DNA of 64,000 bases from an uncultured bacterium (GCA_965233165.1 CBDDRX010000041.1:232-64231); one strand, 5' to 3'; numbered from the stretch's first letter, positions 6,456 to 62,597 are shown. The notes: generated by a model from the sequence alone, not told the origin. Numbers and translations: made by a program.

Positions 6456-6685
6456 GAGGGCGGTGCCTTTCCTGGACGAACTTGTTTAGTCGGGGAGCTA
6501 CGTCGCGGATGTTAGGGACGGGTAGCAATCCCGACTATCGGCGGGACTTGATTCCTTGCGTAGCGACCAGCCCACCGCGCGTAGCGCGATTGCGACAGCA
6601 GAATCAAGTCGCGGCGATATCGCTGCTGCGGCGCGGCACCTAACATTTTTTCCCCCGCCTGCAGCACTCCCCCGGAGGCTCTTCC

Positions 6686-7321: not shown

Positions 7322-9283
7322 GTGGAAGCGCCGGCCCGTGCCATCGTTGCGCCTCATGCCGTCCGCCGCGGGCGGCCATATCCCCTTGGCGCGACCTGGG
7401 ACGGATCCGGCGTCAACTTCGCGCTGCATTCGCGGCACGCCGAGCGCGTCGAGCTGTGCCTGTTCGACGCGAAGGGCCGCCGCGAGATCGAGCGGGTGGC
7501 GCTCGCCGAGCGCACCGACTTCACCTGGCACGGCTACCTGCCGGAGGCGCGCCCCGGGCTTCTCTATGCCTATCGCGTCCATGGGCCCGCCGGCCCGCAG
7601 CACCGCTTCAATCCGCATCGCACGCTGCTCGACCCGTACGCGCGCATGGTGGCCGGCGCGGTCTCTTCCGGCGCCGGGCGCTGCGTCGTGGTGGACTCCG
7701 CCTTCAGCTGGGACGACGATCGCCCGCCGCGCGTGCCTTGGGAAGACACGCTCATCTACGAGGCGCACGCGAAGGGGCTGACCTTCCGCCATCCCGACGT
7801 GCCGGCGCAGCTGCGCGGGACCTATGCGGGCCTGGCGAGCGCGCCCGTGGTCGAGCACCTGCGGTCCCTCGGCGTCACCGCCTTGCAGCTCCTTCCCATC
7901 CAGACGTTCGTGGACGACCGGCGCCTGCTCCAGGCCGGCCTGCGCAACTACTGGGGCTACAACAGCATCGGCTTCTTCGCGCCGGACCTGCGCTACAGCG
8001 CGACCGGCACGCTCGGCGAGTTCAAGACGATGGTGAAGACGCTGCATGCCGCCGGCATCGAGCTGCTCCTCGACGTCGTGTACAACCACACCGGCGAAGG
8101 CGACCACCGCGGCCCGACGCTTTCCTTCCGCGGCATCGACAACGCCCTGTACTACCGCCTGCGCGCCGACAACCCGCAGCACTACCTCGACTGGACCGGT
8201 ACCGGGAATACGCTGGATGTCTCCCAGCCCGCGGTGCTGCAGCTCGTCCTCGACAGCCTGCGCTACTGGGTGACCGAGATGCACGTGGACGGCTTCCGCT
8301 TCGACCTTGCGACCACGCTCGCGCGCGACGCGGCCGGCCATTTCGATCCGCGCGGCGCGTTCCTGAGCGCGGTGCGGCAGGACCCGGTGCTCTCGCAGGT
8401 GAAGCTCATCGCCGAGCCCTGGGACCTCGGCCCGGGCGGCTATCGGACCGGCGGCTTCCCCGGCGGCTGGTCGGAGTGGAACGACCGGTATCGCGATACG
8501 GTGCGTGCGTACTGGAAGGGCGACGAAGGCCGGATCGGCGAGCTCGCGGCGCGCCTGTCCGGATCGCCCGACCTGTTCGAAGGCGGCGGGCGCGCGCCGT
8601 GCGCGAGCGTCAACTTCGTCACCGCGCACGACGGCTTCACGCTCGAGGACCTGGTGAGCTACGGCGCGAAGCGCAACGAGGCGAACCTCGAGGGCAACCG
8701 CGACGGATCGGACCACAACATCAGCTGGAACTGCGGCGCCGAGGGGCCGAGCGCGGATCCGGCGGTCCGGCTCCTGCGGGAGAGGATGAAGAGGAATCTG
8801 CTGGCGACGCTTTTCTTCTCGCGCGGCGTGCCGATGCTGCTTGCGGGCGACGAGCTGGGCCGCACGCAGGGCGGCAACAACAACGCGTACTGCCAGGACA
8901 ATGAGATCTCATGGCTCGACTGGGAGCTCGACGGCCCGGGCCGGGCGCTGCTGGGCTTCGCGCGCCGGCTTTCGGCGCTGCGCAGGGGCCATGCGGCATT
9001 CCGGCCCCGCAAGTACGAGCCGGACATCGTCTGGCTCACGCCGCATGGAGGGGAGATGGCCGAGGCCGACTGGAACCTGCCGTTCGCGCGCTGCCTCGGC
9101 GCGCAGCTCGGGCAGGAGCTGCTGCTCCTGCTGAACGCGCACGACGGCGATATCCCGTTCGCCTTGCCCGAAGGGGCGTGGTCGCCGGCGCTGGACACCG
9201 CGGGCGAGGCGGAGCAGATCTTCGCCGGCACCTACCTGCTGCAGTCCCGCTCGCTGGCGCTGCACGTCAGACCCAGGTCGTGA
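7322..9283 (+). CDS. glgX: glycogen debranching enzyme
   Basis: 653 aa, GTG start. GH13 motifs: YWGYN, LDVVYNHT, GFRFDLA, AEPWD, NFVTAHDGFTL. Confidence 0.9.
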   Translation: MEAPARAIVAPHAVRRGRPYPLGATWDGSGVNFALHSRHAERVELCLFDAKGRREIERVALAERTDFTWHGYLPEARPGLLYAYRVHGPAGPQHRFNPHRTLLDPYARMVAGAVSSGAGRCVVVDSAFSWDDDRPPRVPWEDTLIYEAHAKGLTFRHPDVPAQLRGTYAGLASAPVVEHLRSLGVTALQLLPIQTFVDDRRLLQAGLRNYWGYNSIGFFAPDLRYSATGTLGEFKTMVKTLHAAGIELLLDVVYNHTGEGDHRGPTLSFRGIDNALYYRLRADNPQHYLDWTGTGNTLDVSQPAVLQLVLDSLRYWVTEMHVDGFRFDLATTLARDAAGHFDPRGAFLSAVRQDPVLSQVKLIAEPWDLGPGGYRTGGFPGGWSEWNDRYRDTVRAYWKGDEGRIGELAARLSGSPDLFEGGGRAPCASVNFVTAHDGFTLEDLVSYGAKRNEANLEGNRDGSDHNISWNCGAEGPSADPAVRLLRERMKRNLLATLFFSRGVPMLLAGDELGRTQGGNNNAYCQDNEISWLDWELDGPGRALLGFARRLSALRRGHAAFRPRKYEPDIVWLTPHGGEMAEADWNLPFARCLGAQLGQELLLLLNAHDGDIPFALPEGAWSPALDTAGEAEQIFAGTYLLQSRSLALHVRPRS

Positions 9284-11810
9284 GCCCGAGCTCGAAGGGA
9301 TGCGTCAGCAGCTCGTGGCGCGGGTAGATGCGGATCCGGTAGTCGAGCTTGCCCGACAGGCCGGGCTTCAGGTCGAGGGCGAAGCGGTGCTCGTCGGCAT
9401 CGAGCGTCCCCGCCGGCGCGAGGTCGTGGCTGTGCACCTGGTCGCGCGGCTCGCGCGACAGGAGGAGCTCCACGTGCACGTCGGAAGGGGCGAGGCCGTT
9501 CAGCTTCACGGCCACCTCGACCGGAACGCTCTCGCCGTACCGGATCCGCTGGCGCGGCGCATCGAGGCGGCGCGCCAGCACGCCGGGCCAGGCGCTGCGC
9601 ACGCGCGCCTTCCATGCGGCGATGATCCGCGCCGGCTCGTAGCCTTGCTCGGCGTAGCGGTGGCACTGCCGTGAGGCGGGCAGGTAGAACCTGGAAACGT
9701 ACTCGCCGAGCATGCGCGAGGCGTCGTACTTGGGCAGCAGCGAGGCCATCGAGCGCTTCGCCATGTGCACCCACCCGGGCGAATAGCCGCCTTCCGGGCC
9801 GCGCGCGTAGTAGAGCGGGACGACCTCGTGCTGCAGGATCTCGTAGAGCGTGCGCGCTTCCTCGTGGTCGCGCCGGTGCGGGTCGAGCTCCGGCGAGGCG
9901 GGCTGGATCGCCCAGCCGTTCTCGCCGTCGTAGCCCTCGTCCCACCAGCCATCGAGGATCGACAGGTTGAGCACGCCGTTCATCCCCGCCTTCATGCCGG
10001 AAGTGCCCGAGGCCTCGAGCGGGTAGACCGGGTTGTTGAGCCAGACATCGACGCCGGAGACGAGGCGCCGCGCGATGTGCAGGTCGTAGCCCTCGATGAA
10101 CAGGATCTTGCCCTCGAACTCCTCCTGCCGCGCGATGTGCGCGAGCGTGCGGATCAGCTCCTGGCCCGGCTCATCGGCGGGATGCGCCTTGCCGGCGAAG
10201 AGGAAGAGGACCCGCCGCTCCGGGTCGCCGAGCAGGCGCCGCAGGTGGTCGAGGTTGTTGAGGAGCAGGGTCGCCCGCTTGTACGTGGCAAAGCGGCGCC
10301 CGAAGCCGATCGTGAGCACGTCCGGCTTGGCCGGATCGGCGAAGCGCAGCAGCCGCTCGAGGTGCGAGGTGCTGCCGTGGTTGCGCGCCTGCTGGTGCGC
10401 GAGCCGGTGGCGCACCATGTGGAACATGCGCGACTTCACGTCCTGGCGCACGGCCCAGAAGATGTGGTCGGGGATGGCGCGGACCTTCTCCCAGATGCCC
10501 GGGTAGCTCAGCCGGTGCATCCAGCCCACGCCGAGGTAGCGCTCCAGGACCTCGGCCCATTCGGGCGCGAGGAACGTGGTCACGTGCACGCCGTTGGTCA
10601 CGTAGCTCACCGGGTTTTCCTCCGGCGCGACCTGCGGCCAGAACTCCTTCAGCATGCGCGCCGAGACGCCGCCATGGATGCGCGAGACGCCGTTGTGGTA
10701 GCGCGAGCCGCGGATCGCGAGCGCCGTCATGTTGAAGTCGCCGCCCTGCGGCGGCCGGGCAAGGGCGGCGACGCGCTCCGCCGCGCCGAGCTCGGCGAAG
10801 CAGCTCTTCAAATACGGCAGGACGGTGTTGTCGGTGAACTGGTCATGGCCCGCCGGAACCGGGGTGTGGGTGGTGAAGACGGTGTTCGCCGCCACCGCCT
10901 CGAGGGCGCTCTCCAGGTCGAACCCGCCGGCGACGCGGGTGCGCACCCGCTCGAGGATGAGGAATGCCGCGTGGCCCTCGTTGATGTGCCACACCGTGGG
11001 CCGGATGCCCATCGCCTCGAAGGCGCGCACCCCGCCGACGCCGAGGACGATCTCCTGCTCGACGCGCGTGGTGCGATCGCCGCCATAGAGGCGATGGGTG
11101 ATGCCGCGGTCGCGCTCGTTGTTCTCGGGCAGGTCGGCGTCGAGCAGGTAGAGCCGCACGTGGCCGACCATCGCGAGCCACACCTTGACCTGCACCTTGC
11201 GGCCCGGAAAGTCGACGACGACCCGCATCTCCGAGCCGTCCTCGCGGCGCACCGGCCGGATCGGCAGGTCATCGAAGTCGGAATCGTAGTACTCGGCGCG
11301 CTGGCGGCCCTCGCCATCCACCGTCTGCACGAAATACCCCTGGCGGTACAGCAGGCCCATCGCGACGAAGGGCAGCTGGAAGTCGCTCGCCGCCTTGCAA
11401 TGGTCGCCGGCGAGGATGCCGAGGCCGCCGGAATAGGTCGGCAGGCTCTCGTGCACGCCGAACTCGGCGCAGAAGTACGCCACCACGTCCGCTTCGCGGA
11501 AGCCGCCGCCGTTCTGCTTGAAGGGCGGCTCGGCGTGGTAGGCGTCGAATGCCGAGAGCACGCGGTTCAGGCTGTCGAGGAACGCCGGATCGGCCGCCGC
11601 CTCGATCAGGCGCTGCTCGTCGACGCGCTTGAGCATGCCCTTGGGGCTGTGGCCCGTGGCGTCCCACAGGACGGGGTTGAGGCGCGCGAAGAGCGCGCGC
11701 GTCGGCCGGTCCCAGCTGTACCACAGGTTGGTCGCCAGCTCTTCAAGCCGGGCGAGGCGCTGTGGGATCCTTGGGTTGACTTCGAGGGTGTAGCGCGTAC
11801 CGGGGCGCAT
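9267..11810 (-). CDS. glgP: alpha-glucan (glycogen/maltodextrin) phosphorylase, GT35
   Basis: 847 aa. Motifs: SGGLGILAGDH and the PLP-lysine region EASGTSGMKAGMNG. Convergent 17-nt overlap with glgX. Confidence 0.92.
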   Translation of the reverse strand: MRPGTRYTLEVNPRIPQRLARLEELATNLWYSWDRPTRALFARLNPVLWDATGHSPKGMLKRVDEQRLIEAAADPAFLDSLNRVLSAFDAYHAEPPFKQNGGGFREADVVAYFCAEFGVHESLPTYSGGLGILAGDHCKAASDFQLPFVAMGLLYRQGYFVQTVDGEGRQRAEYYDSDFDDLPIRPVRREDGSEMRVVVDFPGRKVQVKVWLAMVGHVRLYLLDADLPENNERDRGITHRLYGGDRTTRVEQEIVLGVGGVRAFEAMGIRPTVWHINEGHAAFLILERVRTRVAGGFDLESALEAVAANTVFTTHTPVPAGHDQFTDNTVLPYLKSCFAELGAAERVAALARPPQGGDFNMTALAIRGSRYHNGVSRIHGGVSARMLKEFWPQVAPEENPVSYVTNGVHVTTFLAPEWAEVLERYLGVGWMHRLSYPGIWEKVRAIPDHIFWAVRQDVKSRMFHMVRHRLAHQQARNHGSTSHLERLLRFADPAKPDVLTIGFGRRFATYKRATLLLNNLDHLRRLLGDPERRVLFLFAGKAHPADEPGQELIRTLAHIARQEEFEGKILFIEGYDLHIARRLVSGVDVWLNNPVYPLEASGTSGMKAGMNGVLNLSILDGWWDEGYDGENGWAIQPASPELDPHRRDHEEARTLYEILQHEVVPLYYARGPEGGYSPGWVHMAKRSMASLLPKYDASRMLGEYVSRFYLPASRQCHRYAEQGYEPARIIAAWKARVRSAWPGVLARRLDAPRQRIRYGESVPVEVAVKLNGLAPSDVHVELLLSREPRDQVHSHDLAPAGTLDADEHRFALDLKPGLSGKLDYRIRIYPRHELLTHPFELGLTTWV

Positions 11811-51244: not shown

Positions 51245-52024
51245 TCAGCGCCGCAGCGTCGGCAAGCATGCGTGCCTTTCTCCCGCTACCGCGACCACCT
51301 GTACGGGCACACCGTAGAGACGCTGCAGGGTTTCGGCGCGCACGACCTCGCGCGGTGGGCCGGCCTCCAGCACCCGGCCTTCCCCGAGCAGGAGCGCGCG
51401 CTGCGCGCCGATGAAGGCGTGGTCGGGATCATGCGAGGAGAAGAGGATCGCGATGCCGGAGGCGGCGAGGGCGAGGATGCGCTCGAGCACGCGCACCTGG
51501 TTGCCGAAGTCGAGGCTCGCCGTCGGCTCGTCCATGACGAGGAGCTTCGGCTGCTGGGCGAGCGCGCGCGCGACGAGGGCGAGCTGGCGCTCGCCGCCGG
51601 AGACTTCGTTGATCGGCCGCTCCGCCAGGCCGGCGATCCCGAGCGATTCCAGCGCCTCGTCCGCCAGGCGCCGGTCCGCCGCTCCCGGGACGGCAAACGC
51701 GCCGATGCGCGCCGTGCGCCCCATCAGGACGAACTGGCGCAGCGTGTAGGCGAAATAGGCGGTGTGGCCCTGCGGAACATAGCCCGCGAGGCGCGCGACT
51801 TCGCCTCGCGACAGGGACGCGAGCGCCGAGCCGTCGAGCAGCACCTTTCCGCCCTGGGCCGGCAGCAGCCCGAGCAGCGTGCGGAAGAGGGTCGTCTTTC
51901 CGCCCCCGTTGGGCCCGAGCACGCACATCACCTCGCCGGCGCCCAGGGCGAGCGAGACGTCCCGCCCGACCGTACGGCCGGCAAAGCCGAAGGAGACGCC
52001 GCGGGCTTCCAACACCGGCGTCAC
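51245..52024 (-). CDS. ABC transporter ATP-binding protein (type II importer, FecE/BtuD/MolC-like)
   Basis: 259 aa. Walker A GPNGGGKTT, signature VSGGERQ, Walker B LLVMDEPT. 4-nt overlap with the permease gene. Confidence 0.88.
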   Translation of the reverse strand: MTPVLEARGVSFGFAGRTVGRDVSLALGAGEVMCVLGPNGGGKTTLFRTLLGLLPAQGGKVLLDGSALASLSRGEVARLAGYVPQGHTAYFAYTLRQFVLMGRTARIGAFAVPGAADRRLADEALESLGIAGLAERPINEVSGGERQLALVARALAQQPKLLVMDEPTASLDFGNQVRVLERILALAASGIAILFSSHDPDHAFIGAQRALLLGEGRVLEAGPPREVVRAETLQRLYGVPVQVVAVAGERHACLPTLRR

Positions 52025-53025
52025 CAGCGTCTCCGCGACAGGGCGAACAGCCAGAGGAAGAACGGCGTGCCGATGAACGCAGTCAGGACGCCGGGCGGGA
52101 TCTCGATCGTCGCCGCCGTGCGGCCGAGCGTATCGACGCCGAGGAGAAAAGCGGCGCCGAGCAGCATCGAAAGCGGGAGCAGGCGGCCGAAGTCCGGGCC
52201 GACCAGCAGGCGAGCCGCATGCGGAATGAGCAGGCCGACCCAGCCGATGATGCCGCTGATCGCGACCGCGGTGGCGGTCATCAGCGTCGCGGCTGCGATC
52301 ACGAGCGCACGCAGCCGTGCCGTGTTCACGCCGAGGGCCCGCGCCTCGTCGTCGGGCAGCGCGAGCAGGTTCATGCGCCAGCGCAAGAGCACCATCGGCG
52401 CCAGGCCGAGGAACGCGAGCGGCGCGGCGGAAGCAAGGTCACTGGGCGTCACGGAGGCCAGGCTGCCGAGCAGCCAGTACGTGATGGCCGGAAGCTGGTT
52501 GTACGGGTCGGCAAGGTACTTGAGCAGGGCGATGACCGACCCCAGCAGCGTGCCGATCACCACGCCGGTGAGGACGAGGGCGAGCAGCGGGTCGTGCCCG
52601 CGCATCCGCCCGCCGACCGCGTATACAAGGCTCACCGCCGCGAGGCCGCCAGCGAACGCGAAGAGCTGGATGAAGTACACGTTCAGGGAAAGGAAGATCG
52701 CGAGCACCGCGCCGAGCGCGGCCCCGCTCGAGACGCCCAGGATATCGGGCGAGACGAGCGGATTGCGGAACATCCCCTGGTAGGCGGTGCCGGCGGCGGC
52801 GAGCGCGGCGCCGACGAGCAGCGCCGCGATCACCCGCGGGCCGCGCACCTGCAGGATCACCGTCTCCACGTTCGCCGGCAAGGCGCTCGGGCTGCCGGTC
52901 AGCTTCGCCCCAAGGAGGGTCGCAATCTCGCCCAGCGAGACCGGATACCGGCCCACCGCGAACGCGATCGCCGTCAGCGCGACGAGCGCCCCGATCGCGA
53001 TGACATACGCCGGCGCGAGCCTCAT
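52021..53025 (-). CDS. FecCD-family ABC permease (type II importer)
   Basis: 334 aa from ATG 53025. Motifs typical of BtuC/FecCD: NPLVSPDILGVSSGAALG and IGWVGLLIPHAAR. Confidence 0.88.
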   Translation of the reverse strand: MRLAPAYVIAIGALVALTAIAFAVGRYPVSLGEIATLLGAKLTGSPSALPANVETVILQVRGPRVIAALLVGAALAAAGTAYQGMFRNPLVSPDILGVSSGAALGAVLAIFLSLNVYFIQLFAFAGGLAAVSLVYAVGGRMRGHDPLLALVLTGVVIGTLLGSVIALLKYLADPYNQLPAITYWLLGSLASVTPSDLASAAPLAFLGLAPMVLLRWRMNLLALPDDEARALGVNTARLRALVIAAATLMTATAVAISGIIGWVGLLIPHAARLLVGPDFGRLLPLSMLLGAAFLLGVDTLGRTAATIEIPPGVLTAFIGTPFFLWLFALSRRRW

Positions 53026-54011
53026 CACGGCAGCACGCCTGCCTCGCCAAGCAGCGCGTCGAGCTGCGCCGCCGTGGGCTCGCGGTGATAGAAGCGGCGG
53101 TGGAATTCTGCCACCTTCGTCCGCAGGTCGACGGCGAACGCCTGCGGGTAGAGGACCTTTCCCGCCCACCATGCGCCGAGCAGGCGATTCGCGCCCGGCG
53201 GGAAATCGAACCAGCCGAACGGCAGGTGGGGCGAGAGGAAGACGCGCTTCTTCTCGACCGCGGAAGTCGCGCGCCAGAGCGGATGCTCCCAGGCGAGCTT
53301 CCAGAAGTTCGGATCCGTGGTGAGGATCACCTCCGGGTTCCACAGCAGCACCTGCTCCGCCGACACGACGGCCAGCCCGGCCCGCACCCCGGCGGCGACG
53401 TTGTGCGCGCCCAGCAGCTCGAGCACCTCGACGTTGATCGACCCCCGGCCGCCGGTCTGCAGCCCCGCCGGGCCGCGCCCGTAGTACACCCGCGGCCTCG
53501 CCGCCTCGAGCACGCGCGCCGCGCGCGCCTTGATGTCCGCCAGCTCGCCCTCGAACCATTGCGCGAGGGCTTCGGCGCTCTTCTCCTCGCCCATCAGGCG
53601 CCCCAGGCCGCGCAGAGTTGCGGGCGTTGCATCGAGCCTGCCGTCGAAGAGCGCGTAGGGGATCTTCGTCTGCTTCTGCACCTGCGTCGCAAGAGACGCG
53701 AGGCTCGGCGAGGTGGAGCCGACGTCGACGATGAGGTCAGCCTTCGCGCGCAGCACGACTTCCACGTTGGCGGTGCTGCCGCGACCGGTCAGGCGGCCGA
53801 GCTCCGGAAGTACCGCGTACTTTTCCGGGACGAAGGCGGCCTCGTTCGGTCGAAACGCACGCGTCCATCCGAGCAGCTTGTCGGGGGCGATCGCGAAGAC
53901 CAGAACGCTCGCGGGCGGGCCGGCGGCGTAGACGCGCTCGGTCTTGCGCGGCGCCTGGCCCAGAACGCCGGACGTTGCGAGCAGCAGGGCGAGGGCGCAA
54001 GCCGCTTTCAT
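53025..54011 (-). CDS. periplasmic substrate-binding protein (class III, BtuF/FhuD/MolA-like)
   Basis: 328 aa with a signal peptide. The stop overlaps the permease ATG and the start overlaps the regulator stop (both ATGA). Substrate not assignable from sequence alone. Confidence 0.78.
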   Translation of the reverse strand: MKAACALALLLATSGVLGQAPRKTERVYAAGPPASVLVFAIAPDKLLGWTRAFRPNEAAFVPEKYAVLPELGRLTGRGSTANVEVVLRAKADLIVDVGSTSPSLASLATQVQKQTKIPYALFDGRLDATPATLRGLGRLMGEEKSAEALAQWFEGELADIKARAARVLEAARPRVYYGRGPAGLQTGGRGSINVEVLELLGAHNVAAGVRAGLAVVSAEQVLLWNPEVILTTDPNFWKLAWEHPLWRATSAVEKKRVFLSPHLPFGWFDFPPGANRLLGAWWAGKVLYPQAFAVDLRTKVAEFHRRFYHREPTAAQLDALLGEAGVLP

Positions 54012-55042
54012 GGGCGAATGCCTTCACGGCTCTGCTCCACCCAGGTCAGCGCCGCGTCCAGAGGATGGCGCCGTCCGGCCTGCGCTGCCGAGTAGCCCGG
54101 CAGCTTCTCGATCACGGCCGCCAGTTCGGGGGTGCGCAAAGTCTCCAGCAGTGCGGCCACGGCCGGCAGCTGCAGCGAAGCCTTGGGGCAGGCGATGAAA
54201 TAGCGTTCCGTCGCGAGCTGGACGAAGGAGAGCTTATTCTTTGCGGCTTCCGCACGCAGGCCGAAGCCCGCGTCGGCACGGCCGCGCGCGACTTCCACGG
54301 CGACCGAGGCATCCCGCCCGCCTCGACCCTCCGTGGCGGGATTCTGCCGGTGGATGAAGCGCACGCCGGGCCGGGCGAGGTCGTGCACATTGCGGATCCG
54401 CGAACCGGGCCGCACGATCAGGCCCTGCTCGCGGCGCACGAAGTGGACAAGCACGTGCTTGCGTGAATCGAGCCACTTGCCGAGGGAGGCAGCGGCGGCC
54501 GCGGCGCGCGGGAGGGCGTCGGCCACGTGGAAGCCGGCGAGGTCGCACTCACCGCGCGCGAGCGCGGCGAGGCAGTCGTCCGAGCCCTTGAAGACGACGT
54601 CGAGCTCCAGGCGCGTCGCGCAAAGCTCAGGCAGGGCGGCGATCGCCAGGTCGTGGCTTGCATGCAGGGAGAGCCGCGGGCGCTTGCCGGGCAGCGCGTC
54701 TGCGAGCAGCAGCGGGATCTCGCCCCGCAGTTGCTCGAAGGGCTCGGCGAGCGCGCTGCGCACCCGTGCATCGGCCTGCACCACGCGGCGGCCGAGGTCG
54801 CTGAGGCGGGCGCCTCGACCCTGCTGCATCTCGACCAGGGCGGTGCCGAAGATCTTCGCTGCGTCGCCCAGGACCCCCCAGGCGAAGCGATAGGACACCC
54901 CGGCGGCGCGCGCGGCCTCCCGGAGGGAGCTCGACTGCTCGAGCTCGCGCAGCAGGTGCAGGAGCGCCCGCGCGCGCTCCCGGGGGAGTCCCGGTGCCGC
55001 GAGCCAGCCTGCATCGAACGCGATCTCGACCTTGTTATGCAC
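54008..55042 (-). CDS. ModE-N-type HTH regulator fused to a periplasmic-binding-protein-like (PBP_like) sensor domain
   Basis: 344 aa, GTG start. The N-terminal SLREAARAAGVSYRFAWGVLGD is the ModE-type winged helix. The C-terminal ~230 aa resembles an oxyanion-binding PBP fold. It is the first gene of the type II ABC operon. Confidence 0.72.
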   Translation of the reverse strand: MHNKVEIAFDAGWLAAPGLPRERARALLHLLRELEQSSSLREAARAAGVSYRFAWGVLGDAAKIFGTALVEMQQGRGARLSDLGRRVVQADARVRSALAEPFEQLRGEIPLLLADALPGKRPRLSLHASHDLAIAALPELCATRLELDVVFKGSDDCLAALARGECDLAGFHVADALPRAAAAAASLGKWLDSRKHVLVHFVRREQGLIVRPGSRIRNVHDLARPGVRFIHRQNPATEGRGGRDASVAVEVARGRADAGFGLRAEAAKNKLSFVQLATERYFIACPKASLQLPAVAALLETLRTPELAAVIEKLPGYSAAQAGRRHPLDAALTWVEQSREGIRP

Positions 55043-55098
55043 GGATGAGCCTATTTAAATACCAGCAGGGGGCCGTGTAAAGTCGGCATCGTGTCCAT

Positions 55099-55122
55099 AG
55101 TTATGAACATAGGTGCATAACT
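55099..55122. promoter_or_regulatory. candidate operator: AGTTATG-N10-CATAACT perfect inverted repeat
   Basis: It lies in the 70-nt divergent region between the ModE-N/PBP regulator and tupB. Its spacer contains the tupB GTG. The half-sites resemble the GTTAT/ATAAC cores of ModE operators. A third GTTATG lies at 55034-55039. Confidence 0.45.
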
Positions 55123-55790
55123 TTCCCGGCATCCTGGCCGAGCCCGAGCTCTGGCACATCGTCGCCCTCAGCCTGCAAGTGAGCCTGTCCGCCGTCGGCA
55201 TCGCCATGGCCCTGGGGCTGCCGCTCGGCGCCGCCCTCGCCGTCGGGCGTTTCCCCGGGCGCGACGCGCTCGTGGTCATCCTCAACGCCCTGATGGGGCT
55301 GCCGCCGGTCGTGGTCGGGCTGGTGGTCTACCTCCTGCTCTCGCGCGCGGGCCCGCTCGGTGATCTCGGCCTGCTCTTCACGCCCGGAGCGATGGTGATC
55401 GCGCAGACGATCCTGATCCTGCCGATCGCCGCCGCGCTGTGCCGGCAGGCGGTCGAGGACGCGTGGCGCGAGTACGAAGAGCAGCTGCGCTCCCTGGGCG
55501 TCGACGGGCTTCGCGCCGCGCTGACGGTGCTGTGGGATATCCGGTTTTCGCTCCTGACCGCGGTTCTGGCCGGACTCGGGCGTGCAAGCGCAGAAGTCGG
55601 GGCGGTGATGATCGTGGGCGGGAACATCGACGGCGTGACGCGCGTCATGACGACGACTATCGCGCTGGAGACCTCCAAGGGGGACCTGCCGCTTGCGCTG
55701 GGGCTGGGAATCGTCCTGATCGGCGTGGTGCTGGCGCTCAATGCCGCAGCGCACCTGGTCAAGGAAGCCGCGCAGCGGAGGTACGGATGA
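55113..55790 (+). CDS. tupB: tungstate ABC transporter permease
   Basis: 225 aa, GTG start. 5-6 TM segments and a MetI-type EAA-like loop (EEQLRSLGVDGLRAALTVLWD). Gene order is tupB-tupC-tupA. Confidence 0.8.
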   Translation: MHNFPGILAEPELWHIVALSLQVSLSAVGIAMALGLPLGAALAVGRFPGRDALVVILNALMGLPPVVVGLVVYLLLSRAGPLGDLGLLFTPGAMVIAQTILILPIAAALCRQAVEDAWREYEEQLRSLGVDGLRAALTVLWDIRFSLLTAVLAGLGRASAEVGAVMIVGGNIDGVTRVMTTTIALETSKGDLPLALGLGIVLIGVVLALNAAAHLVKEAAQRRYG

Positions 55791-56491
55791 TCCTGCCGCT
55801 GCGGCTCGAGGAAGTGTCTTTCGCCGCAGGCGGGCGCCTGGTGATCCATCCGCTGTCGCTGGAAGTCGCGGCGGGCCCGGCGACGATCATCCTCGGCGCG
55901 AACGGGGCGGGCAAAAGCGTGCTCATGCGCCTGATGCACGGGCTGCTGCCGCCGACGGCGGGCCGGGTCACGTGGCGCGAGGCGGGATCGCGGCACACCC
56001 AGGCCATGGTCTTCCAGCGCCCGGTGATGCTGCGCCGCTCGGCGCTGGCGAACGTCCAGTACGCGCTCAAGGCGGCCGGCGTCGCCGGGCCGGAACGTGC
56101 GCGCGCCGCGCTCGTTGCCCTCGAAGAGGTCGGGCTGCGTCCCCGCGCCCTGCAGCCGGCCCGCGCGCTCTCGGGCGGCGAGCAGCAGCGCCTCGCCCTC
56201 GCGCGCGCGTGGGCACTGCATCCGGAGATCCTGTTCCTCGACGAGCCCACCGCGAGCCTGGACCCGACCGCGACGCGCGAGATCGAGTCCGTCATCCGCG
56301 CGTTCGATGCCGCCGGCACGAAAATCGTCATGGCGACCCACAACCTCGCCCAGGCGCGGCGCCTGGGCGACGAGGTCGTCTTCCTGCACCAGGGACGACT
56401 GGTCGAGCGCGCCCCCGTCGATCGGTTTTTCGCCAGCCCGCAGTCCGCCGAGGCGGCTGCTTTCATCAAAGGAGAACTGCCATGGGTCTGA
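55787..56491 (+). CDS. tupC: tungstate ABC transporter ATP-binding protein
   Basis: 234 aa. The ATG overlaps the tupB stop (ATGA). Walker A GANGAGKS, signature LSGGEQQR, Walker B LFLDEPT. Confidence 0.85.
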   Translation: MILPLRLEEVSFAAGGRLVIHPLSLEVAAGPATIILGANGAGKSVLMRLMHGLLPPTAGRVTWREAGSRHTQAMVFQRPVMLRRSALANVQYALKAAGVAGPERARAALVALEEVGLRPRALQPARALSGGEQQRLALARAWALHPEILFLDEPTASLDPTATREIESVIRAFDAAGTKIVMATHNLAQARRLGDEVVFLHQGRLVERAPVDRFFASPQSAEAAAFIKGELPWV

Positions 56492-57294
56492 TCATCCGTG
56501 TCCTCGTCCTGCTCGCGCTTGCTGCGCCCGCGCACGCGCACGCGCAGCGATTCATTACGGTGGCGTCCACCACGTCGACCGAGCAGTCCGGGCTGTTCAA
56601 GCACCTGTTGCCGGCGTTCGAGAAGAAGGCCGGGATCCAGGTGCGGGTGGTCGCGCTTGGCACCGGCCAGTCTCTGGACATGGGCAAGCGGGGCGACGCC
56701 GACGTCGTCTTCGTGCACGCGAAGGCGCTGGAGGAAAAGTTCGTCGCCGACGGCTTCGGCGTGAAGCGCTTCGAGGTGATGTACAACGACTTCGTCCTCG
56801 TCGGCCCGAAGTCGGACCCGGCGAAAGTGGGGGGGACGAAGAACATCGTCGCCGCGCTGCAGAAAATCAAGGCAGCGCAGGCGCCCTTCGCCTCTCGCGG
56901 CGACAAGAGCGGAACCCACTTCGCCGAGCTGCAGCTCTGGCAGGCCGCCGGCATCGACATCGCCAAGGGCAAGGGCCCGTGGTATCGCGACACAGGCTCC
57001 GGCATGGGGCCGACGCTGAACACCGCTTCGGGGATGAACGCCTACGCGCTCACAGACCGCGGCACCTGGCTCTCGTTCAGGAACCGCGGCGAGCTCGTCA
57101 TCGCCGTAGAGGGCGACCAGCGCCTGTTCAACCAGTACGGCGTCATCCTCGTGAATCCGGCGAAGCATCCGCACGTGAAGCAGGCGGACGGGCAGGCGTT
57201 CATCGACTGGCTCGTTTCCGCTGAAGGACAAGCGGCGATCGCCGCGTATAAGATCGGCGGCGAGCAGCTTTTCTTCCCCAACGCGAAGAGATGA
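56482..57294 (+). CDS. tupA: tungstate-binding periplasmic protein
   Basis: 270 aa. AAAGGAGA SD and a signal peptide. Motifs characteristic of TupA: TVASTTSTEQSGL, and SRGDKSGTH. Confidence 0.85.
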   Translation: MGLIIRVLVLLALAAPAHAHAQRFITVASTTSTEQSGLFKHLLPAFEKKAGIQVRVVALGTGQSLDMGKRGDADVVFVHAKALEEKFVADGFGVKRFEVMYNDFVLVGPKSDPAKVGGTKNIVAALQKIKAAQAPFASRGDKSGTHFAELQLWQAAGIDIAKGKGPWYRDTGSGMGPTLNTASGMNAYALTDRGTWLSFRNRGELVIAVEGDQRLFNQYGVILVNPAKHPHVKQADGQAFIDWLVSAEGQAAIAAYKIGGEQLFFPNAKR

Positions 57295-57298
57295 ACGA

Positions 57299-57640
57299 AT
57301 GCGCTACCGAGGCCTGACGCTGCGCGTGCTCGGTGCGGCTGGCCCGGCGATGGGGCCCGGCAAGGCGGACTTGATCGAGAGAATCGGCCAGACCGGGTCG
57401 ATTTCGGCTGCGGCGCGGGGTATGGGCATGTCCTACCGGCGCGCCTGGCAGCTCGTCGAGGCGCTGAACCGAACCTTCCGGGAGCCGGTCGTCACCACGG
57501 CGATCGGCGGTGCCCGCGGCGGCGGGGCGCAGGTCACCGACTTTGGCAGGAAGCTCGTCGCCGAGTATCGCCGGATGGAGGCGAAAGCGTCGGCGGCGAT
57601 CGCCGGCGACCTCAAGCGGTACGCTCGCTATATTCCGTGA
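57299..57640 (+). CDS. ModE N-terminal-domain-only (winged-helix) protein
   Basis: 113 aa. GSISAAARGMGMSYRRAWQLVEALN is the ModE-type HTH. There are no Mop/TOBE domains. It starts 5 nt after tupA. Confidence 0.75.
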   Translation: MRYRGLTLRVLGAAGPAMGPGKADLIERIGQTGSISAAARGMGMSYRRAWQLVEALNRTFREPVVTTAIGGARGGGAQVTDFGRKLVAEYRRMEAKASAAIAGDLKRYARYIP

Positions 57641-57652
57641 TATATAGCGCTG

Positions 57653-58399
57653 GTGGATCAGGTCGTCGTGGCGCTGCTGGCGGCGGGGATGCTCGTCGCC
57701 GCGTTTGGATATGCGTCCGTCGGACATGGCGGCGCATCGGCCTATATCGCCGCGATGGCGCTGGCGGGGATCGCACCGCAGGAAATGCGGCCCATCGCAC
57801 TGCTGCTGAACATCTTAGTCTCCTCGATCGCCGCGTGGAAGTTCCGTAGCGCCGGGCACTTCCGCTGGGAGCTGTTCTGGCCCTTCGCCGCGGTGTCGAT
57901 TCCCATGGCCTATCTCGGCGGCGCCCTGACGCTCCCGGGGCAGGCGTACAAGGCGCTGATCGGCGTCGTGCTCCTCTATGCCGCCTTGCAGCTTTGGCGA
58001 AGCGGAAGCCGGGGAGAGGAAATGCGGGCCGTGCGGTCACCGCGACTTGGGGTCGCGATGGGGATCGGCGCCGGGCTGGGGTTGCTGTCCGGCCTCACGG
58101 GGGTGGGCGGAGGCATCTTTCTCAGTCCGCTGCTCCTCATGCTGGGCTGGGCGGGGACGAAGCAGACCTCCGCGATCTCGGCACCCTTCATCCTCGTGAA
58201 CTCGATCGCCGGGCTCGCCGCCCATTTCATCAGCAAGGGCACGGCGTTGCCCGCATACGTGCCGGTCCTGGCCGGTGCAGTCGTCGTGGGCGGCTGGCTC
58301 GGCGCCGAGTATGGAGCGCGGCGCCTCGCCAATCCGCTGGTTCGCAGAGTGCTCGCCGTGGTGCTGGCGCTGGCCGGCGGGAAGATGATCCTGGTCTAG
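57653..58399 (+). CDS. TSUP (TauE/SafE, DUF81) family anion permease
   Basis: 248 aa, GTG start, about 8 TM segments. Duplicated G-rich motifs: GHGGAS and GVGGGIFLSPLL. Confidence 0.8.
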   Translation: MDQVVVALLAAGMLVAAFGYASVGHGGASAYIAAMALAGIAPQEMRPIALLLNILVSSIAAWKFRSAGHFRWELFWPFAAVSIPMAYLGGALTLPGQAYKALIGVVLLYAALQLWRSGSRGEEMRAVRSPRLGVAMGIGAGLGLLSGLTGVGGGIFLSPLLLMLGWAGTKQTSAISAPFILVNSIAGLAAHFISKGTALPAYVPVLAGAVVVGGWLGAEYGARRLANPLVRRVLAVVLALAGGKMILV

Positions 58400-58461
58400 G
58401 GAATATCCGGACTGCTGTAATGTTGGCGCCTCGGACACGACTACATACCGGACGGAACGCG

Positions 58462-58797
58462 ATGAGCAATTATTTCGAATCGGAGGACCTGAAGAAGTTC
58501 GGCGAGATCGGGCAGCACGCCAAGGGGCTCGCCGATGACTTCTTCAAGTACTACGGCCACGTCACCGGGACCGACGGGGCACTGACGAAGCGCGAGAAGG
58601 CCTTGATTGCGCTCGCGGTTTCGCATGCGCAGAAATGCCCTTACTGCATCGACGCCTATACGACGCAGTGCCTCGAGACCGGGGCGAATCCGGAGCAGAT
58701 GATGGAGGCGGTGCACGTCGCCGCCGTGATGCAGGCAGGCATCACGCTGGTGCATTCCGTGCAGATGCAGAACCACCTGAAGAAGCTGGTGCTTTGA
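58462..58797 (+). CDS. AhpD/carboxymuconolactone-decarboxylase-like protein of the ArsS-associated 'peroxidase-like' type
   Basis: 111 aa. LTKREKALIALAVSHAQKCPYCIDAY carries the CxxC of the AhpD fold. The stop overlaps the arsS TTG start. Confidence 0.78.
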   Translation: MSNYFESEDLKKFGEIGQHAKGLADDFFKYYGHVTGTDGALTKREKALIALAVSHAQKCPYCIDAYTTQCLETGANPEQMMEAVHVAAVMQAGITLVHSVQMQNHLKKLVL

Positions 58798-59816
58798 GCG
58801 CCGCTGCACCGGTACGCGTCTTCCGCGAGCGCGCGAAGCACGACTTCGAGGGCGAGCTGCGCAGGCGCGGCATCGCGCTGCCGCCGCTCGCCGTCGAGAC
58901 GCTGCAGGTCAACATCACGAAGCTGTGCAACCAGGTCTGCCGCCACTGCCACGTCGACGCCTCGCCCTCCCGCACGGAGATGCTCTCGCCTGAAGGAATC
59001 CAGAAGTGCCTCGAGATCCTCGCCCGCCAGCCGCGGCTGAAGAAGCTCGACATCACCGGCGGCGCGCCCGAGCTGCATCCAGGCTTCGACGGCTTCGTGG
59101 AGCGGGCGGTCGCGCTCGGCAAGCACGTCATGGTCCGACACAACCTGACGGTGCAGCTCGACGGGCATCCCGTGACCAGGGAAGGGAAGGAGTATCTTCC
59201 GGAGTTCTTCGCCCGCAACCGCATCGAGGTGATCTCGTCGCTGCCGTACTACCAGGAGTTCTTCACCGACGCGCAGCGCGGCTCCGGCGTATTCAGGAAG
59301 AGCATCGAGGCGCTGAAGCGCCTGAACGCCGTGGGCTACGGCGTTGACGGAAGCGGCCTGGTCCTCAACCTCATCTACAACCCGGTCGGCCCCTACCTGC
59401 CTGCGGCGCAGGCGGGCCTCGAGGCGGACTACAAGCGCAGCCTGCGCGAGGGCTTCGGGGTGGTCTTCAACGCCCTGCACACGATCACCAACATGCCGAT
59501 CAACCGCTTCCGGCTGCACCTGGAAAAGAGCGGGCAGTACGACGCGTACCTGGAAAAGCTCCACGCCGCGTTCAACCCGGCGGCGGCGGAAGGCGTGATG
59601 TGCCGCAGCCTGATCAGCGTCGGCCATGACGGCCGCATCTACGACTGCGACTTCAACCAGATGCTGGAGATGGATGCCGTCGACGCGCGCGGCCGGCCGC
59701 TCTCGATCTTCGACTTCGACCTCGAGAAGGTGATGCGGCGCTCCATCCGCTTCGAGGCGCACTGCTTCGGCTGCACGGCCGGCGCCGGAAGCTCCTGCGG
59801 AGGGGCCACCGCCTAG
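58794..59816 (+). CDS. arsS: ArsS-type radical SAM / Cys-rich domain protein (arsenosugar-biosynthesis family), Cys form
   Basis: 340 aa. TTG 58794 overlaps the upstream stop (TTGA). Radical SAM CNQVCRHCH. C-terminal Cys-rich tail CRSLISVGHDGRIYDCDFN...HCFGCTAGAGSSCGG. No in-frame TGA. Confidence 0.82.
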   Translation: MSAAAPVRVFRERAKHDFEGELRRRGIALPPLAVETLQVNITKLCNQVCRHCHVDASPSRTEMLSPEGIQKCLEILARQPRLKKLDITGGAPELHPGFDGFVERAVALGKHVMVRHNLTVQLDGHPVTREGKEYLPEFFARNRIEVISSLPYYQEFFTDAQRGSGVFRKSIEALKRLNAVGYGVDGSGLVLNLIYNPVGPYLPAAQAGLEADYKRSLREGFGVVFNALHTITNMPINRFRLHLEKSGQYDAYLEKLHAAFNPAAAEGVMCRSLISVGHDGRIYDCDFNQMLEMDAVDARGRPLSIFDFDLEKVMRRSIRFEAHCFGCTAGAGSSCGGATA

Positions 59817-59830
59817 CTACAATCGGCGGC

Positions 59831-60328
59831 ATGAAGATCTTCGGCTTCGCCGGCTGGTCCGGAAGCGGCAAGACCACGCTGGTCGAGAAGCTCATCCCGC
59901 GCTTCGTCCAGGGCGGGCTGCGCGTGTCGCTGGTCAAGCACGCGCATCACAACTTCGACGTCGATACGCCCGGGAAGGACTCGTACCGGCATCGCCAGGC
60001 GGGCGCGAGCGAGATCCTGGTGACCTCGTCGCGGCGCTGGGTGCTGATGCACGAGCTGCGCGGCGCGCAGGAGCCGTCGTTCGACGAGCAGGTGAAGCGC
60101 CTGTCTCCCTGCGACCTGCTTCTCGTCGAGGGCTTCAAGTTCGCGCCGATCCCGAAGCTCGAAGTGTGGCGCAAGGAAACCGGCGAGGCGCTGCTCCACC
60201 CGAACGATCCGCACATCGTCGCGGTCGCCACCGATGCGAAGATCGAGGCGAAGCTGCCGGTCCTCGACCTCAACGACGATGCCGCCATCGCGCGCTTCAT
60301 CCTGAAGCACCTGAAGCTCGATGAATAA
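59831..60328 (+). CDS. mobB: molybdopterin-guanine dinucleotide biosynthesis adaptor protein
   Basis: 165 aa. Motifs: P-loop GWSGSGKTT, VKHAHH, and EGFK. Confidence 0.88.
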   Translation: MKIFGFAGWSGSGKTTLVEKLIPRFVQGGLRVSLVKHAHHNFDVDTPGKDSYRHRQAGASEILVTSSRRWVLMHELRGAQEPSFDEQVKRLSPCDLLLVEGFKFAPIPKLEVWRKETGEALLHPNDPHIVAVATDAKIEAKLPVLDLNDDAAIARFILKHLKLDE

Positions 60329-61523
60329 GGGCCTGCTCTCGGTCGACGAGGCGCTCGAGCTCCTGCTTGCGGGCGCGCGGCCGGTAAAGGAGGTCGAGGA
60401 GGTGCCGGCGCTCGAGGCGACGAACCGCGTGCTCGCCCGCGCGCAGCGCTCGACGATGGACGTCCCGCCGATGGACAACAGCGCCATGGACGGGTACGCC
60501 GTCCGCGTTTCGGACCTGCAGAAAAGCCCTTCCCTGAAGGTCTCCCAGCGCATCATGGCCGGCTCGGTGGGAAAACCGCTCGCGCCGGACACGGCAGCGC
60601 GCATCTTTACGGGCGCACCGATTCCCCCGGGGGCCGACGCAGTGGTCATGCAGGAGCACTGTGAAGCCGATTTTGATTCTGTCTCGGTAAAGAGATTCCC
60701 CAGGGCAGGAGAATGGGTCCGCCTGGCCGCCAGCGACGTGAAGAAGGGCGGCGAGATCCTTCCGGCGGGAAAGCGCCTGCTTCCGCAGGACACCGGGCTC
60801 GCGGCCTCGGTGGGGATTGCTTCCCTGCCGGTGTTTAGGCGGGTTCGCCTTGGCCTGTTCTTTACGGGCGACGAGCTGGTGATGCCCGGCGAGCCGCTCG
60901 CGCCGGGGCGGATCTACAACTCGAACCGCTTCACCCTGCGCGGGCTCGCCGGCATGTTCGGCTGCGAGGTGCGGGACTACGGCATCGTTCCCGACACGCT
61001 GGAGGCCACGCGTGCAGTGCTGCGCAGGGCGGCTGCCGAGTGCGACGTGATCGTGACCTCGGGCGGCGTGTCCGTCGGCGACGCGGATTTCGTGAAGCCG
61101 GCGGTGGAGGCCGAAGGCGATCTCCTCATGTGGAAGATCGCGATGAAGCCCGGCCGTCCGCTCGCCTTCGGCAAGGTGGGGCAGGCGGCGTTCATCGGCC
61201 TGCCCGGAAATCCGGTCTCCAGCTTCGTGACCTTCCTGATCTTCGTGCGCCCGTTCCTGCTCAGGACGCAGGGGGTCGCCGATCCGCAGCCCAGGGCGAT
61301 CGCCGCGCGGGCGGATTTCGACTGGCCCGAGCCTGACGCGAGGCGCGAGTTCCTGCGCGTAAAATGGAACGCGCAGGGCGGGCTCGACCTGTACCCGACG
61401 CAGGATTCCGCGGTGCTGACCTCCACGGCCTGGGCCGACGGCCTGGTCGACAATCCGGCGCAGCAGGCGATCCGCAAGGGCGACAGCGTGCGCTTCCTGC
61501 CGTACTCGGAGCTGTACCGGTGA
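60321..61523 (+). CDS. moeA: molybdopterin molybdenumtransferase (paralogue 2)
   Basis: 400 aa. 8-nt overlap with mobB. Motifs: DNSAMDGYAV, TSGGVSVGDADF, KIAMKPGRPLAFG, GLPGNPVS. Confidence 0.9.
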   Translation: MNKGLLSVDEALELLLAGARPVKEVEEVPALEATNRVLARAQRSTMDVPPMDNSAMDGYAVRVSDLQKSPSLKVSQRIMAGSVGKPLAPDTAARIFTGAPIPPGADAVVMQEHCEADFDSVSVKRFPRAGEWVRLAASDVKKGGEILPAGKRLLPQDTGLAASVGIASLPVFRRVRLGLFFTGDELVMPGEPLAPGRIYNSNRFTLRGLAGMFGCEVRDYGIVPDTLEATRAVLRRAAAECDVIVTSGGVSVGDADFVKPAVEAEGDLLMWKIAMKPGRPLAFGKVGQAAFIGLPGNPVSSFVTFLIFVRPFLLRTQGVADPQPRAIAARADFDWPEPDARREFLRVKWNAQGGLDLYPTQDSAVLTSTAWADGLVDNPAQQAIRKGDSVRFLPYSELYR

Positions 61524-61780
61524 TGAAAGTCAAAGTGCTGTTCTTCGCCTCGCTGAAGGAGCGCCTGGGCAAGGATGCCGAGGAGATCGAGCTTCCGCCC
61601 GGGGTCTCGACGGTCGCTGCGCTGCGTGCGCACCTCGGCGCACGCGGCGGCGCCTACGCGGAAGCGTTCGCGGAGAAGAAGCTCGTGAAGGCCGCGGTGA
61701 ACCAGGACATGGCGCCCGCGACGGCGTCCATCAAGGCGGGGGACGAGGTGGCGTTCTTTCCGCCGGTGACCGGCGGATGA
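61523..61780 (+). CDS. moaD: molybdopterin synthase sulfur-carrier subunit
   Basis: 85 aa. The ATG overlaps the moeA stop (TGATG). Ubiquitin-like, ending FFPPVTGG. Confidence 0.85.
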   Translation: MKVKVLFFASLKERLGKDAEEIELPPGVSTVAALRAHLGARGGAYAEAFAEKKLVKAAVNQDMAPATASIKAGDEVAFFPPVTGG

Positions 61781-62214
61781 AAGTCTCGGTCCAGCGGGAA
61801 GACTTCGACCTGTCTTGCGTCGTGAACGAGCTGCGCAAGGACCCGAAAGTCGGCGCGGTCGCGAGCTTCGTGGGCGTGGTGCGCGAAGTGGCGATGACGC
61901 TCGAGCACTATCCTGGGATGACGGAGAAGGCCCTGCAGAAGATCGTCGCGGAGGCGAAGGGACGCTGGCAAATCCTCGACTGCACCGTGATCCACCGCTA
62001 CGGCCCGCTGCAGCCGACCGACCAGATCGTGCTGGTGGCGGTGGCTTCCGCGCACCGCGGCGATGCCTTCGCCGCCTGCGAGTTCATCATGGACTACCTG
62101 AAGACCCGCGCGCCCTTCTGGAAGAAGGAGGCGGGCAAGGGCTGGGTGGAAGCGCGCGCTTCCGACGACACGGCGGCCGAGCGCTGGCAGGACCCGGAGC
62201 GCAGGACCGGCTGA
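61777..62214 (+). CDS. moaE: molybdopterin synthase catalytic subunit
   Basis: 145 aa. ATGA overlap with moaD. Motifs: GAVASFVGVVR, HRGDAF, FWKKE. Confidence 0.9.
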   Translation: MKVSVQREDFDLSCVVNELRKDPKVGAVASFVGVVREVAMTLEHYPGMTEKALQKIVAEAKGRWQILDCTVIHRYGPLQPTDQIVLVAVASAHRGDAFAACEFIMDYLKTRAPFWKKEAGKGWVEARASDDTAAERWQDPERRTG

Positions 62215-62597
62215 TGCCGCCGTTCTCCGCGCTGGCCGCAGTGGCCGTCGGCGCGGTGCTCGGCGCCTGGCTGCGATGGCTGCTGGTGGCGAAGCTCAAT
62301 CCCGTGCTGCCCTTTCTCCCCATGGGCACGCTCGTCGCGAACATCGGCGGCGGGCTCATGGTCGGCCTCGCGGTCGCCTGGCTGGCCGCGCAGCCGCAGC
62401 TGCACCCGACCGTGCGCCTTTTCGTCATCACCGGGTTCCTGGGCGCATTGACGACGTTCTCGAGCTTCTCCGCCGAGTCCCTGGAGCTGCTCTACGCCGG
62501 GCGCTATGGATGGGCGCTTGGCCATTCAGCGCTTCATGTCTTCGGGTCCCTCGCCGCGGCGACGGCGGGGTTTGCCGGCTACCGCGCGCTCGCCTAA
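62214..62597 (+). CDS. crcB: fluoride channel CrcB/Fluc
   Basis: 127 aa. The ATG overlaps the moaE stop (TGATG). 4 TM segments. Motifs: [10 protein letters not shown] and [11 protein letters not shown]. Confidence 0.85.

Follow-up and report, generated by a model that had tools for sequence, protein, structure and literature searches.

To our knowledge, MolBC-A of Haemophilus influenzae is the only characterised type II ATP-binding cassette (ABC) importer for a small oxyanion; this low-affinity molybdate/tungstate system is encoded by HI1470, HI1471 and HI1472. A second protein of relevance is 4PAG, a solute-binding protein of Sulfurospirillum deleyianum deposited as a structural-genomics entry, on which we found no paper. 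Here we analysed a 64,000-nucleotide stretch of DNA (the window; GCA_965233165.1, CBDDRX010000041.1:232-64231) from an uncultured bacterium, whose 3.35 Mb metagenome-assembled genome (MAG) is of Burkholderiales type and 93% complete; the base composition of the window is ~70% G+C. On the minus strand of the window, the gene for a ModE-N/PBP_like regulator (REG) heads those for a class III binding protein (SBP), a FecCD-family permease and an ATPase, and this set lies divergent from tupBCA, the genes of a tungstate importer. We propose, with a probability of about 0.6, that the REG-SBP-permease-ATPase set encodes a MolBC-A-like type II importer of molybdenum (Mo) and tungsten (W) acquisition that carries molybdate and/or tungstate species and is co-controlled with tupBCA. 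The general role of the importer in Mo/W uptake is well supported by sequence comparison, and a free oxyanion would be the most economical reading of its cargo. A place in Mo/W homeostasis is argued by the conserved linkage of the importer to tup, mod and REG genes, by MolB being its closest solved permease, by the operators that it shares with tup, and by the failure of our searches to find a Fur box or a cobalamin riboswitch.

The window importer has the same architecture as MolBC-A, namely a Peripla_BP_2 binding protein with a FecCD permease and an ATPase. Among type II permeases its closest solved relative is MolB (HI1471, 2NQ2; 6.3e-66), with a haem permease 13 orders of magnitude worse (1.6e-52) and BtuC at 5e-33, and MolA is among the three nearest solved relatives of the SBP family by profile. 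MolBC-A co-exists with ModABC in Haemophilus (PMC4031551), as the importer does in relatives of the window locus, and the same source describes the regulation of molABC as unknown. The window system differs from MolBC-A in that its operon is headed by a dedicated regulator, in that it is divergent from tupBCA in a genome without modABC, and in that its SBP is much nearer to the uncharacterised 4PAG and does not conserve the ligand residues of MolA. 4PAG is the nearest solved structure to SBP and its gene also stands in a Mo/W context; however, the two proteins are ~31-40% identical and their putative pocket loops differ. The 4PAG locus also has TonB-ExbBD, a TonB-dependent receptor and a radical-SAM/SBP-like fusion, none of which occurs in the window locus, and its regulator is a classical ModE (HTH_1 + TOBE), unlike REG.

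Linkage of the importer to molybdenum and tungsten genes

We compared the window with the loci of its relatives (L001-L072), reading the gene content of the high-GC loci from tblastn and Pfam. The importer adjoins tupBCA in all ten close loci (10/10), usually together with REG, mobB/moeA and formate dehydrogenase (FDH) genes. Among 301 sampled genomes of the order, 24, belonging to 17 of the 141 genera, carried the SBP family; flanking sequence was fetched for 20 of the 24, and 13 have an SBP of at least 54% identity. A REG-type regulator, tupBCA and/or modABC lay within 10 kb in 11 of these 13 loci, in at least six gene orders. In a congener, modABC sits exactly between REG and SBP (REG-modA-modB-modC-SBP-PERM-ATP, with PERM and ATP for permease and ATPase), and this array is divergent from tupBCA. 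Other loci carry REG-tupBCA-SBP-PERM-ATP on one strand, tupBCA..SBP-PERM-ATP-modABC-mobB, or ModEN-modABC-tupBCA..REG..SBP-PERM-ATP. The two unlinked exceptions among the 13 belong to one family, and the SBP of one has an internal stop; for the distant SBPs of the order (30-46% identity), linkage is mostly lost. The arrangement in the window is more than chance, as the gene set recurs in the close loci and in most of the 13 further loci, and because linkage survives so much rearrangement, we argue that these genes share a function. In L047, from a complete Burkholderiales genome, the REG-type regulator and SBP are separated by a TonB-dependent receptor and a CHASE8 hybrid histidine kinase (5208-7124, 7670-9490).

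The host genome encodes at least seven MoCoBD_1 enzymes (xanthine-oxidase/carbon monoxide dehydrogenase (CODH) family), one enzyme of the sulfite-oxidase family and six of the dimethyl sulfoxide (DMSO)-reductase family. The xanthine-oxidase/CODH and sulfite-oxidase families use Mo and are not known to use W. A search for modA with TIGR01256 found nothing in this MAG, at 93% completeness, and no other ModA/WtpA-like binder was found in the genome, where PF13531 matched only TupA, REG and one C106 protein. The last was considered as a possible ModA and rejected, as it reads from its sequence as a ferric-iron binding protein. The genomes of L002, L005 and L010, which have the same locus type, also gave no modA match above cut-off and carry 7-14 MoCoBD_1 genes each; modA was present in 14 of the 15 other importer-bearing genomes tested. 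Because many Mo enzymes are encoded and ModABC is missing from the lineage, Mo must enter via TupABC and/or the type II importer.

SBP itself matched 4PAG first in the PDB when a single sequence was used (1.1e-41), followed by Haemophilus MolA (3PSA, 1.6e-16). A profile of the SBP family returned 4PAG (3.7e-59), 4OVK (2e-31) and MolA (9.7e-29), and siderophore, B12 and haem binders ranked below these three. An AlphaFold2 (AF2) model of SBP, with a predicted local distance difference test (pLDDT) score of 88.8, had 4PAG as its top Foldseek match at a template-modelling (TM) score of 0.84. Three Gly/Ser/Thr/Arg-rich loops are invariant in the SBP family, GRLTGRG (72-78), DVGST (96-100) and TGGxGS (186-191; TGGRGS in the window), and such loops would suit a small anion. 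In another relative (genome G040, L053:9970-11010), the SBP orthologue is split into two open reading frames (ORFs) by an internal TAA stop; this genome is also without modA, the L053 locus has no Mo/W neighbours, and the importer may be decaying there.

The shared control region and its probable regulator

The divergent region between REG and tupB is 70 bp long, with two 20-bp palindromes of consensus rTATGCA-N6-TGCATAy (Table 1). Operator 1 is conserved in L002, L005 and L010, and the CCTATTTAAA element next to it is a possible -10 region of tup. Equivalent operator pairs were present in seven loci (L002, L003, L004, L005, L010, L056 and L057). A matrix made from 12 sites of six other loci, with the window sites left out, ranked operator 1 first and operator 2 second among the 3.35 million positions of the genome, in which no other site was strong; operator 2 is the single exact TATG-N10-CATA in the genome, where ~6 are expected from base composition. 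The third-best score, at the start of an unrelated gene (C71:2121), was treated as chance; the next-best matches fell in unrelated places, and this genome-wide scan found no operator-like site near FDH genes.

L003 and L004 have both operators without the gene for the 113-aa ModE-N-only protein that follows tupA in the window, and for this reason REG is the likelier operator binder. The initial annotation had suggested that control of the FDH and molybdenum cofactor (Moco) genes by W and by Mo might be split between the two ModE-N proteins, a proposal for which we found no support, given that the operators persist without the 113-aa protein and that none lies near FDH. For the Moco genes, any such control would have to come by read-through from tup, behind which they lie in the same orientation with no gap above 62 nt. 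No Fur box was found within three mismatches, nor a cobalamin or Moco riboswitch. A sigma-70 promoter scan gave no match, and four terminator-like matches all lay inside genes, at chance level.

In REG, a ModE-type winged helix (residues ~25-105) is joined through a long linker helix (82-114) to a PF12727 sensor domain, which matched at 126.8 bits against a gathering cut-off of 27. Its AF2 model (pLDDT 82.8, with residues 234-244 disordered) has a winged helix, a long helix and a two-lobed domain, and Foldseek matched it to full-length LysR-type regulators, giving an overall architecture like that of LysR-type transcriptional regulators. With TIGR00637, REG scored 39.4 bits and the 113-aa protein 84.5 bits, both below the 98.5-bit cut-off and yet specific best matches; ModE and 2IJL in the PDB were matched by the ModE-N proteins of the window, and REG matched the NCBIfam MoeA-fusion model PRK14498 at 5.5e-33. 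REG homologues carry the JGI name 'molybdate transport repressor ModE-like protein'. Our literature search found no paper that describes the REG architecture or the importer clade, and no characterised member with the REG architecture. A 2024 review considers ModE the sole metal sensor of the LysR family.

Like Escherichia coli ModE, both window proteins have an N-terminal ModE winged helix, and the operators are AT-rich palindromes of similar span. The sensor of E. coli ModE is a di-Mop/TOBE molybdate sensor, in place of which REG has a PBP_like sensor; neither REG nor the 113-aa protein gave a TOBE match, and the only TOBE match of the genome is to a 408-aa ORF on another contig. ModE boxes are of the TATAT type, whereas the half-site of the window operators is TATGCA. 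TunR is reportedly a regulator of tungstate/molybdate transport with a PBP_like (PF12727) sensor. A regulator family with this sensor is that of Rajeev et al. 2019, as cited in PMC10102598. PBP_like domains also occur fused to MoeA. REG shares with these regulators the PF12727 sensor and a position beside tup/mod genes, and differs from them in a DNA-binding domain of the ModE-N/LysR type. It further differs from the other PF12727 regulators examined in that its sensor is without the RQxGSGTR loop and the next helix, both of which they keep. The 113-aa protein is 29% identical to the N-terminus of REG and aligned over 98 residues with 2IJL of A. tumefaciens (135 aa; 5e-26). Both are stand-alone winged helices without a sensor; unlike 2IJL, the window gene is joined to a tup operon.

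Cargo of the importer and competing explanations

In the model that we favour, the importer would bring molybdate and/or tungstate species from the periplasm to the cytoplasm; the importer and tupBCA share the 70-bp control region, where REG would bind both operators and repress both operons, and itself, when metal is sufficient. With modABC lost and many Mo-only enzymes kept, the importer together with TupABC would be a main Mo route. The initial annotation had called this a second W/Mo importer. Linkage, MolB and operators uphold a Mo/W system and not one for iron, haem or B12, but a MolA-like oxyanion site, which the comparison with MolBC-A might imply, is not retained at the level of residues. 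The word 'second' may also understate the role of the importer, the genome having no modABC.

Several observations speak against the favoured model, beginning with the pocket of SBP, for which our statements rest on alignments. The substrate-contact residues of MolA are K221, R264, Y301 and Y114 (bioRxiv 10.64898/2026.10.15.759412). With MolA numbering mapped onto the alignments (offset 21 from the chain index, three residues checked), K221 corresponds to S191 and Y301 to F270 in SBP, R264 lies inside a two-residue insertion missing from SBP and 4PAG, and the Y114 loop aligns with DVGST of SBP; a conserved basic residue (R189/K) is found two positions ahead of the K221 column. By fold, MolA came eighth in Foldseek (TM 0.70), no closer than YiuA or 4HN9. 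Because the ligand residues are not kept and the fold is no closer than that of siderophore binders, MolA-like oxyanion binding by SBP is an analogy, and homology backs a MolBC-like machine, not a MolA-like binding site. Relatives with TonB-dependent receptors and a radical-SAM/SBP-like enzyme hint at a bulkier, organic cargo. With respect to Mo supply, TupABC alone might cover the need, and the absence of modABC rests on a MAG that is 93% complete. Lastly, the PF12727 match of REG is split (profile positions 10-101 and 134-193, with 102-133 missing), and metal sensing by REG is uncertain, as the most conserved motif of the sensor is lost.

This loss has a definite distribution. A REG paralogue in L004 matches PF12727 positions 14-192 without a break, and the REG of the window and its close relatives is missing ~25 residues found in modABC-linked paralogues, the lost piece being RQxGSGTR and the next helix. 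RQxGSGTR was present in 12 of 12 REG paralogues from other loci, which span several families, and was missing only in the window, L002, L005 and L010, exactly the four modA-less genomes, with L052 intermediate. More than 100 intact REG homologues (65-94% identity) carry the same PF12727 call, and the 13 that were aligned all have the shortened sensor. Because intact homologues share it, selection maintains the short form, which may have changed selectivity or depend on a partner. The role of oxyanion sensor that the initial annotation had given to REG is therefore not assured, the missing PF12727 segment including a motif that is invariant in the paralogues. The REG of L052 (L052:6308-7336, genome G053) keeps RQSGSGGR with the short spacing of the deleted type; it heads a single-strand REG-tupBCA-SBP-PERM-ATP array, and modA lies elsewhere in G053.

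An unlikely explanation, though one with several points in its favour, is that the importer carries complexed Mo or W, such as a catecholate 'molybdophore/tungstophore', a thiomolybdate or a pterin-like species, and that its Burkholderiales version makes up the inner-membrane half of a pathway that uses a TonB-dependent receptor elsewhere. The gene for 4PAG is directly behind one for a full-length ModE (HTH_1 + TOBE) and is followed by that for a 593-aa radical-SAM protein with a Peripla_BP_2-like domain; the genes that it faces encode ExbB-ExbD-TonB-FecCD-ATPase, a TonB-dependent receptor and FdhD, with an FDH operon to the other side. In Desulfuromonas the order is receptor, SBP, ExbBD-TonB, FecCD, ATPase, second SBP, radical-SAM and an HTH_3+PBP_like regulator; a relative from Syntrophus is accompanied by DUF364 proteins, FmdE, an esterase, a methyltransferase, a receptor, XdhC and a TOBE molbindin. 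TonB-dependent receptors are present in L070, L071, L072 and L047, and that of L047, between REG and SBP, brings the association within the Burkholderiales. A complexed cargo would fit relatives at 31-43% identity that combine TonB-ExbBD, a receptor, a radical-SAM/Peripla_BP_2 fusion, DUF364, an esterase and methyltransferases with ModE, PBP_like or TOBE proteins, and it would also fit an SBP that does not conserve the oxyanion residues of MolA and whose fold is as near to siderophore binders as to MolA. However, genes for a TonB-dependent receptor, TonB-ExbBD, a radical-SAM/SBP fusion and chelator synthesis are all missing from the window locus, and tblastn with the receptors of the relatives gave only weak matches in the window genome. 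The putative pocket loops differ between the window clade and the 4PAG clade, so that the cargo may differ too, and the conserved DVGST, TGGRGS and GRLTGRG loops favour a small anion. A broader version of this explanation, which we consider speculative and rather improbable, would make the 4PAG/window clade a dedicated Mo/W pathway for complexed species, with a TonB receptor and radical-SAM processing in anaerobes; in modABC-less Burkholderiales its inner-membrane half would have become the main Mo supply, and the sensor would have been remodelled by loss of the GSGTR loop. The radical-SAM fusions occur as ~600-aa proteins beside 4PAG-type binding proteins (L070:11041-12822 and L071:15915-17735) and share 50% identity; the L071 protein aligns with the window SBP through its Peripla_BP_2-like part (28% identity over 187 aa). 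The fusion resembles a cytoplasmic enzyme in which the binding-protein fold has been put to new use, perhaps in processing imported cargo.

It is also conceivable, at long odds, that the cargo is a different tetrahedral oxyanion (vanadate, chromate, selenate, arsenate, phosphate or sulfate) and that the importer only shares its regulation with tungstate uptake. In the close relatives, rhodanese-ChrB_C and chrA genes lie immediately downstream of the importer on the same strand, the tup-side operon contains an ArsS-like radical-SAM gene and a TSUP permease gene, and the PF12727 family has solved members with phosphate bound (PMC10443332). The chr genes, however, have their own chrB-b leader RNA and are unlinked to the importer outside the close relatives, and the constant partners of the importer across families are tup, mod, REG, moeA/mobB and FDH. 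An ordinary iron-siderophore, haem or cobalamin importer that stands beside tup by accident seems to us very improbable. Databases do call the homologues 'iron complex transport system substrate-binding protein', and there are Pfam/NCBIfam matches to FecCD, BtuC, FhuB and corrinoid ATPase models, all of them below cut-off. Nevertheless, the Mo/W linkage persists through rearrangements and across phyla, a ModE-type regulator leads the operon, the operators are shared with tup, MolB is the nearest solved permease, and neither a Fur box nor a cobalamin riboswitch was found.

Gene layout, neighbouring genes and implications

All eight genes of the two facing operons were placed by Pfam and NCBIfam where the initial annotation had them and with the domains that it had assigned (Table 1), including the divergent tupB-tupC-tupA on the plus strand with TTSTEQSGL, the fusion of a ModE-type helix-turn-helix to a binding-protein-like domain in REG, and the 113-aa protein that is a ModE winged helix only. 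Its description of every minus-strand junction as a 4-nt ATGA overlap was correct in length: all three are 4-nt start/stop overlaps, and REG, SBP, permease and ATPase are translationally coupled. ATGA is found only at REG/SBP, the others being of GTGA type (SBP/permease reads GTGATG, which can be taken as GTGA or TGATG, and permease/ATPase reads GTGA). The gap between tupA and the ModE-N gene is 4 nt and not 5, and tupA overlaps tupC by 10 nt. The window holds a TTST-motif TupA-type binding protein with TupB and TupC. The best solved relative of this TupA is Geobacter TupA (3LR1), and the NCBIfam TupA and TupB models were the best matches, although both fell short of the equivalog threshold, with 236 bits against 400 for TupA and 160 bits against 320 for TupB.

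Table 1. Coordinates of genes, operators and RNA motif in the window
Feature	Position	Strand	Remarks
chrB-b RNA motif RF03086	51172-51222	-	52.4 bits against gathering score 36.5; E 1e-8
ATPase of type II importer	51245-52024	-	ABC_tran 2.3e-28; GTG start overlaps permease stop
Permease, FecCD-family type II	52021-53028	-	FecCD 2.4e-84
SBP, class III binding protein (Peripla_BP_2, PF01497)	53025-54011	-	Signal peptide; 4PAG/4OVK/MolA subgroup
REG, regulator	54008-55042	-	GTG start, 344 aa; ModE_repress 4.6e-10 and PF12727 PBP_like 7.7e-37
Operator 1, TTATGCACGGATGAGCCTAT	55035-55054		Overlaps REG start codon; abuts conserved CCTATTTAAA element
Operator 2, TTATGAACATAGGTGCATAA	55101-55120		Overlaps tupB start; perfect GTTATG-N10-CATAAC within 55100-55121
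tupB, tungstate ABC permease	55113-55790	+	NCBIfam ABC_perm1 7.5e-74; TupB model 7.8e-47
tupC, ABC ATPase	55787-56491	+	ATGA overlap with tupB
tupA, tungstate-binding protein	56482-57294	+	TTSTEQSGL; NF041772 3.7e-70; 3LR1 2e-75
ModE-N-only protein	57299-57640	+	113 aa; TIGR00637 4e-24; PDB 2IJL 5e-26
TSUP permease, AhpD-like, radical-SAM (ArsS-like), mobB, moeA, moaD, moaE, crcB	57653-62597	+	

The block from the TSUP permease gene to crcB is codirectional with tup, with every gap at most 62 nt, and may be co-transcribed with it; it is syntenic with tup in L002, L005 and L010. Its first three genes, for the TSUP permease, the AhpD-like protein and the ArsS-like radical-SAM protein (57653-59816), are wedged between the ModE-N gene and mobB and, judging from their spacing and strand, are probably co-transcribed with tupBCA. 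The position of the TSUP gene is the same in L002, L005 and L010. On the other side of the locus, the chrB-b RNA motif lies downstream of the ATPase gene, in the 101-nt gap between it and the rhodanese-ChrB_C/chrA pair, and likely marks the 3' limit of the importer operon. Because their own chrB-b RNA motif precedes the rhodanese-ChrB_C gene, the chr genes form a separate regulatory unit. They are paired with the importer in L001, L004, L005 and L010 as well.

The physiological role and regulation of MolBC-A are still described as poorly understood, and the window locus offers a natural test case, having an importer wired to Mo/W genes, with its own regulator and a pair of defined operators, in a lineage rich in Mo-only enzymes from which ModABC is missing. 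If the importer is the Mo route here, a widespread group of Burkholderiales from soil and sediment would break the standard rule that the absence of modABC means no high-demand Mo metabolism, and thousands of annotations as 'iron complex transport' would be wrong. The loss of modABC coincides with the loss of the REG sensor motif, which makes the locus a compact, testable example of a transporter and a sensor evolving together.

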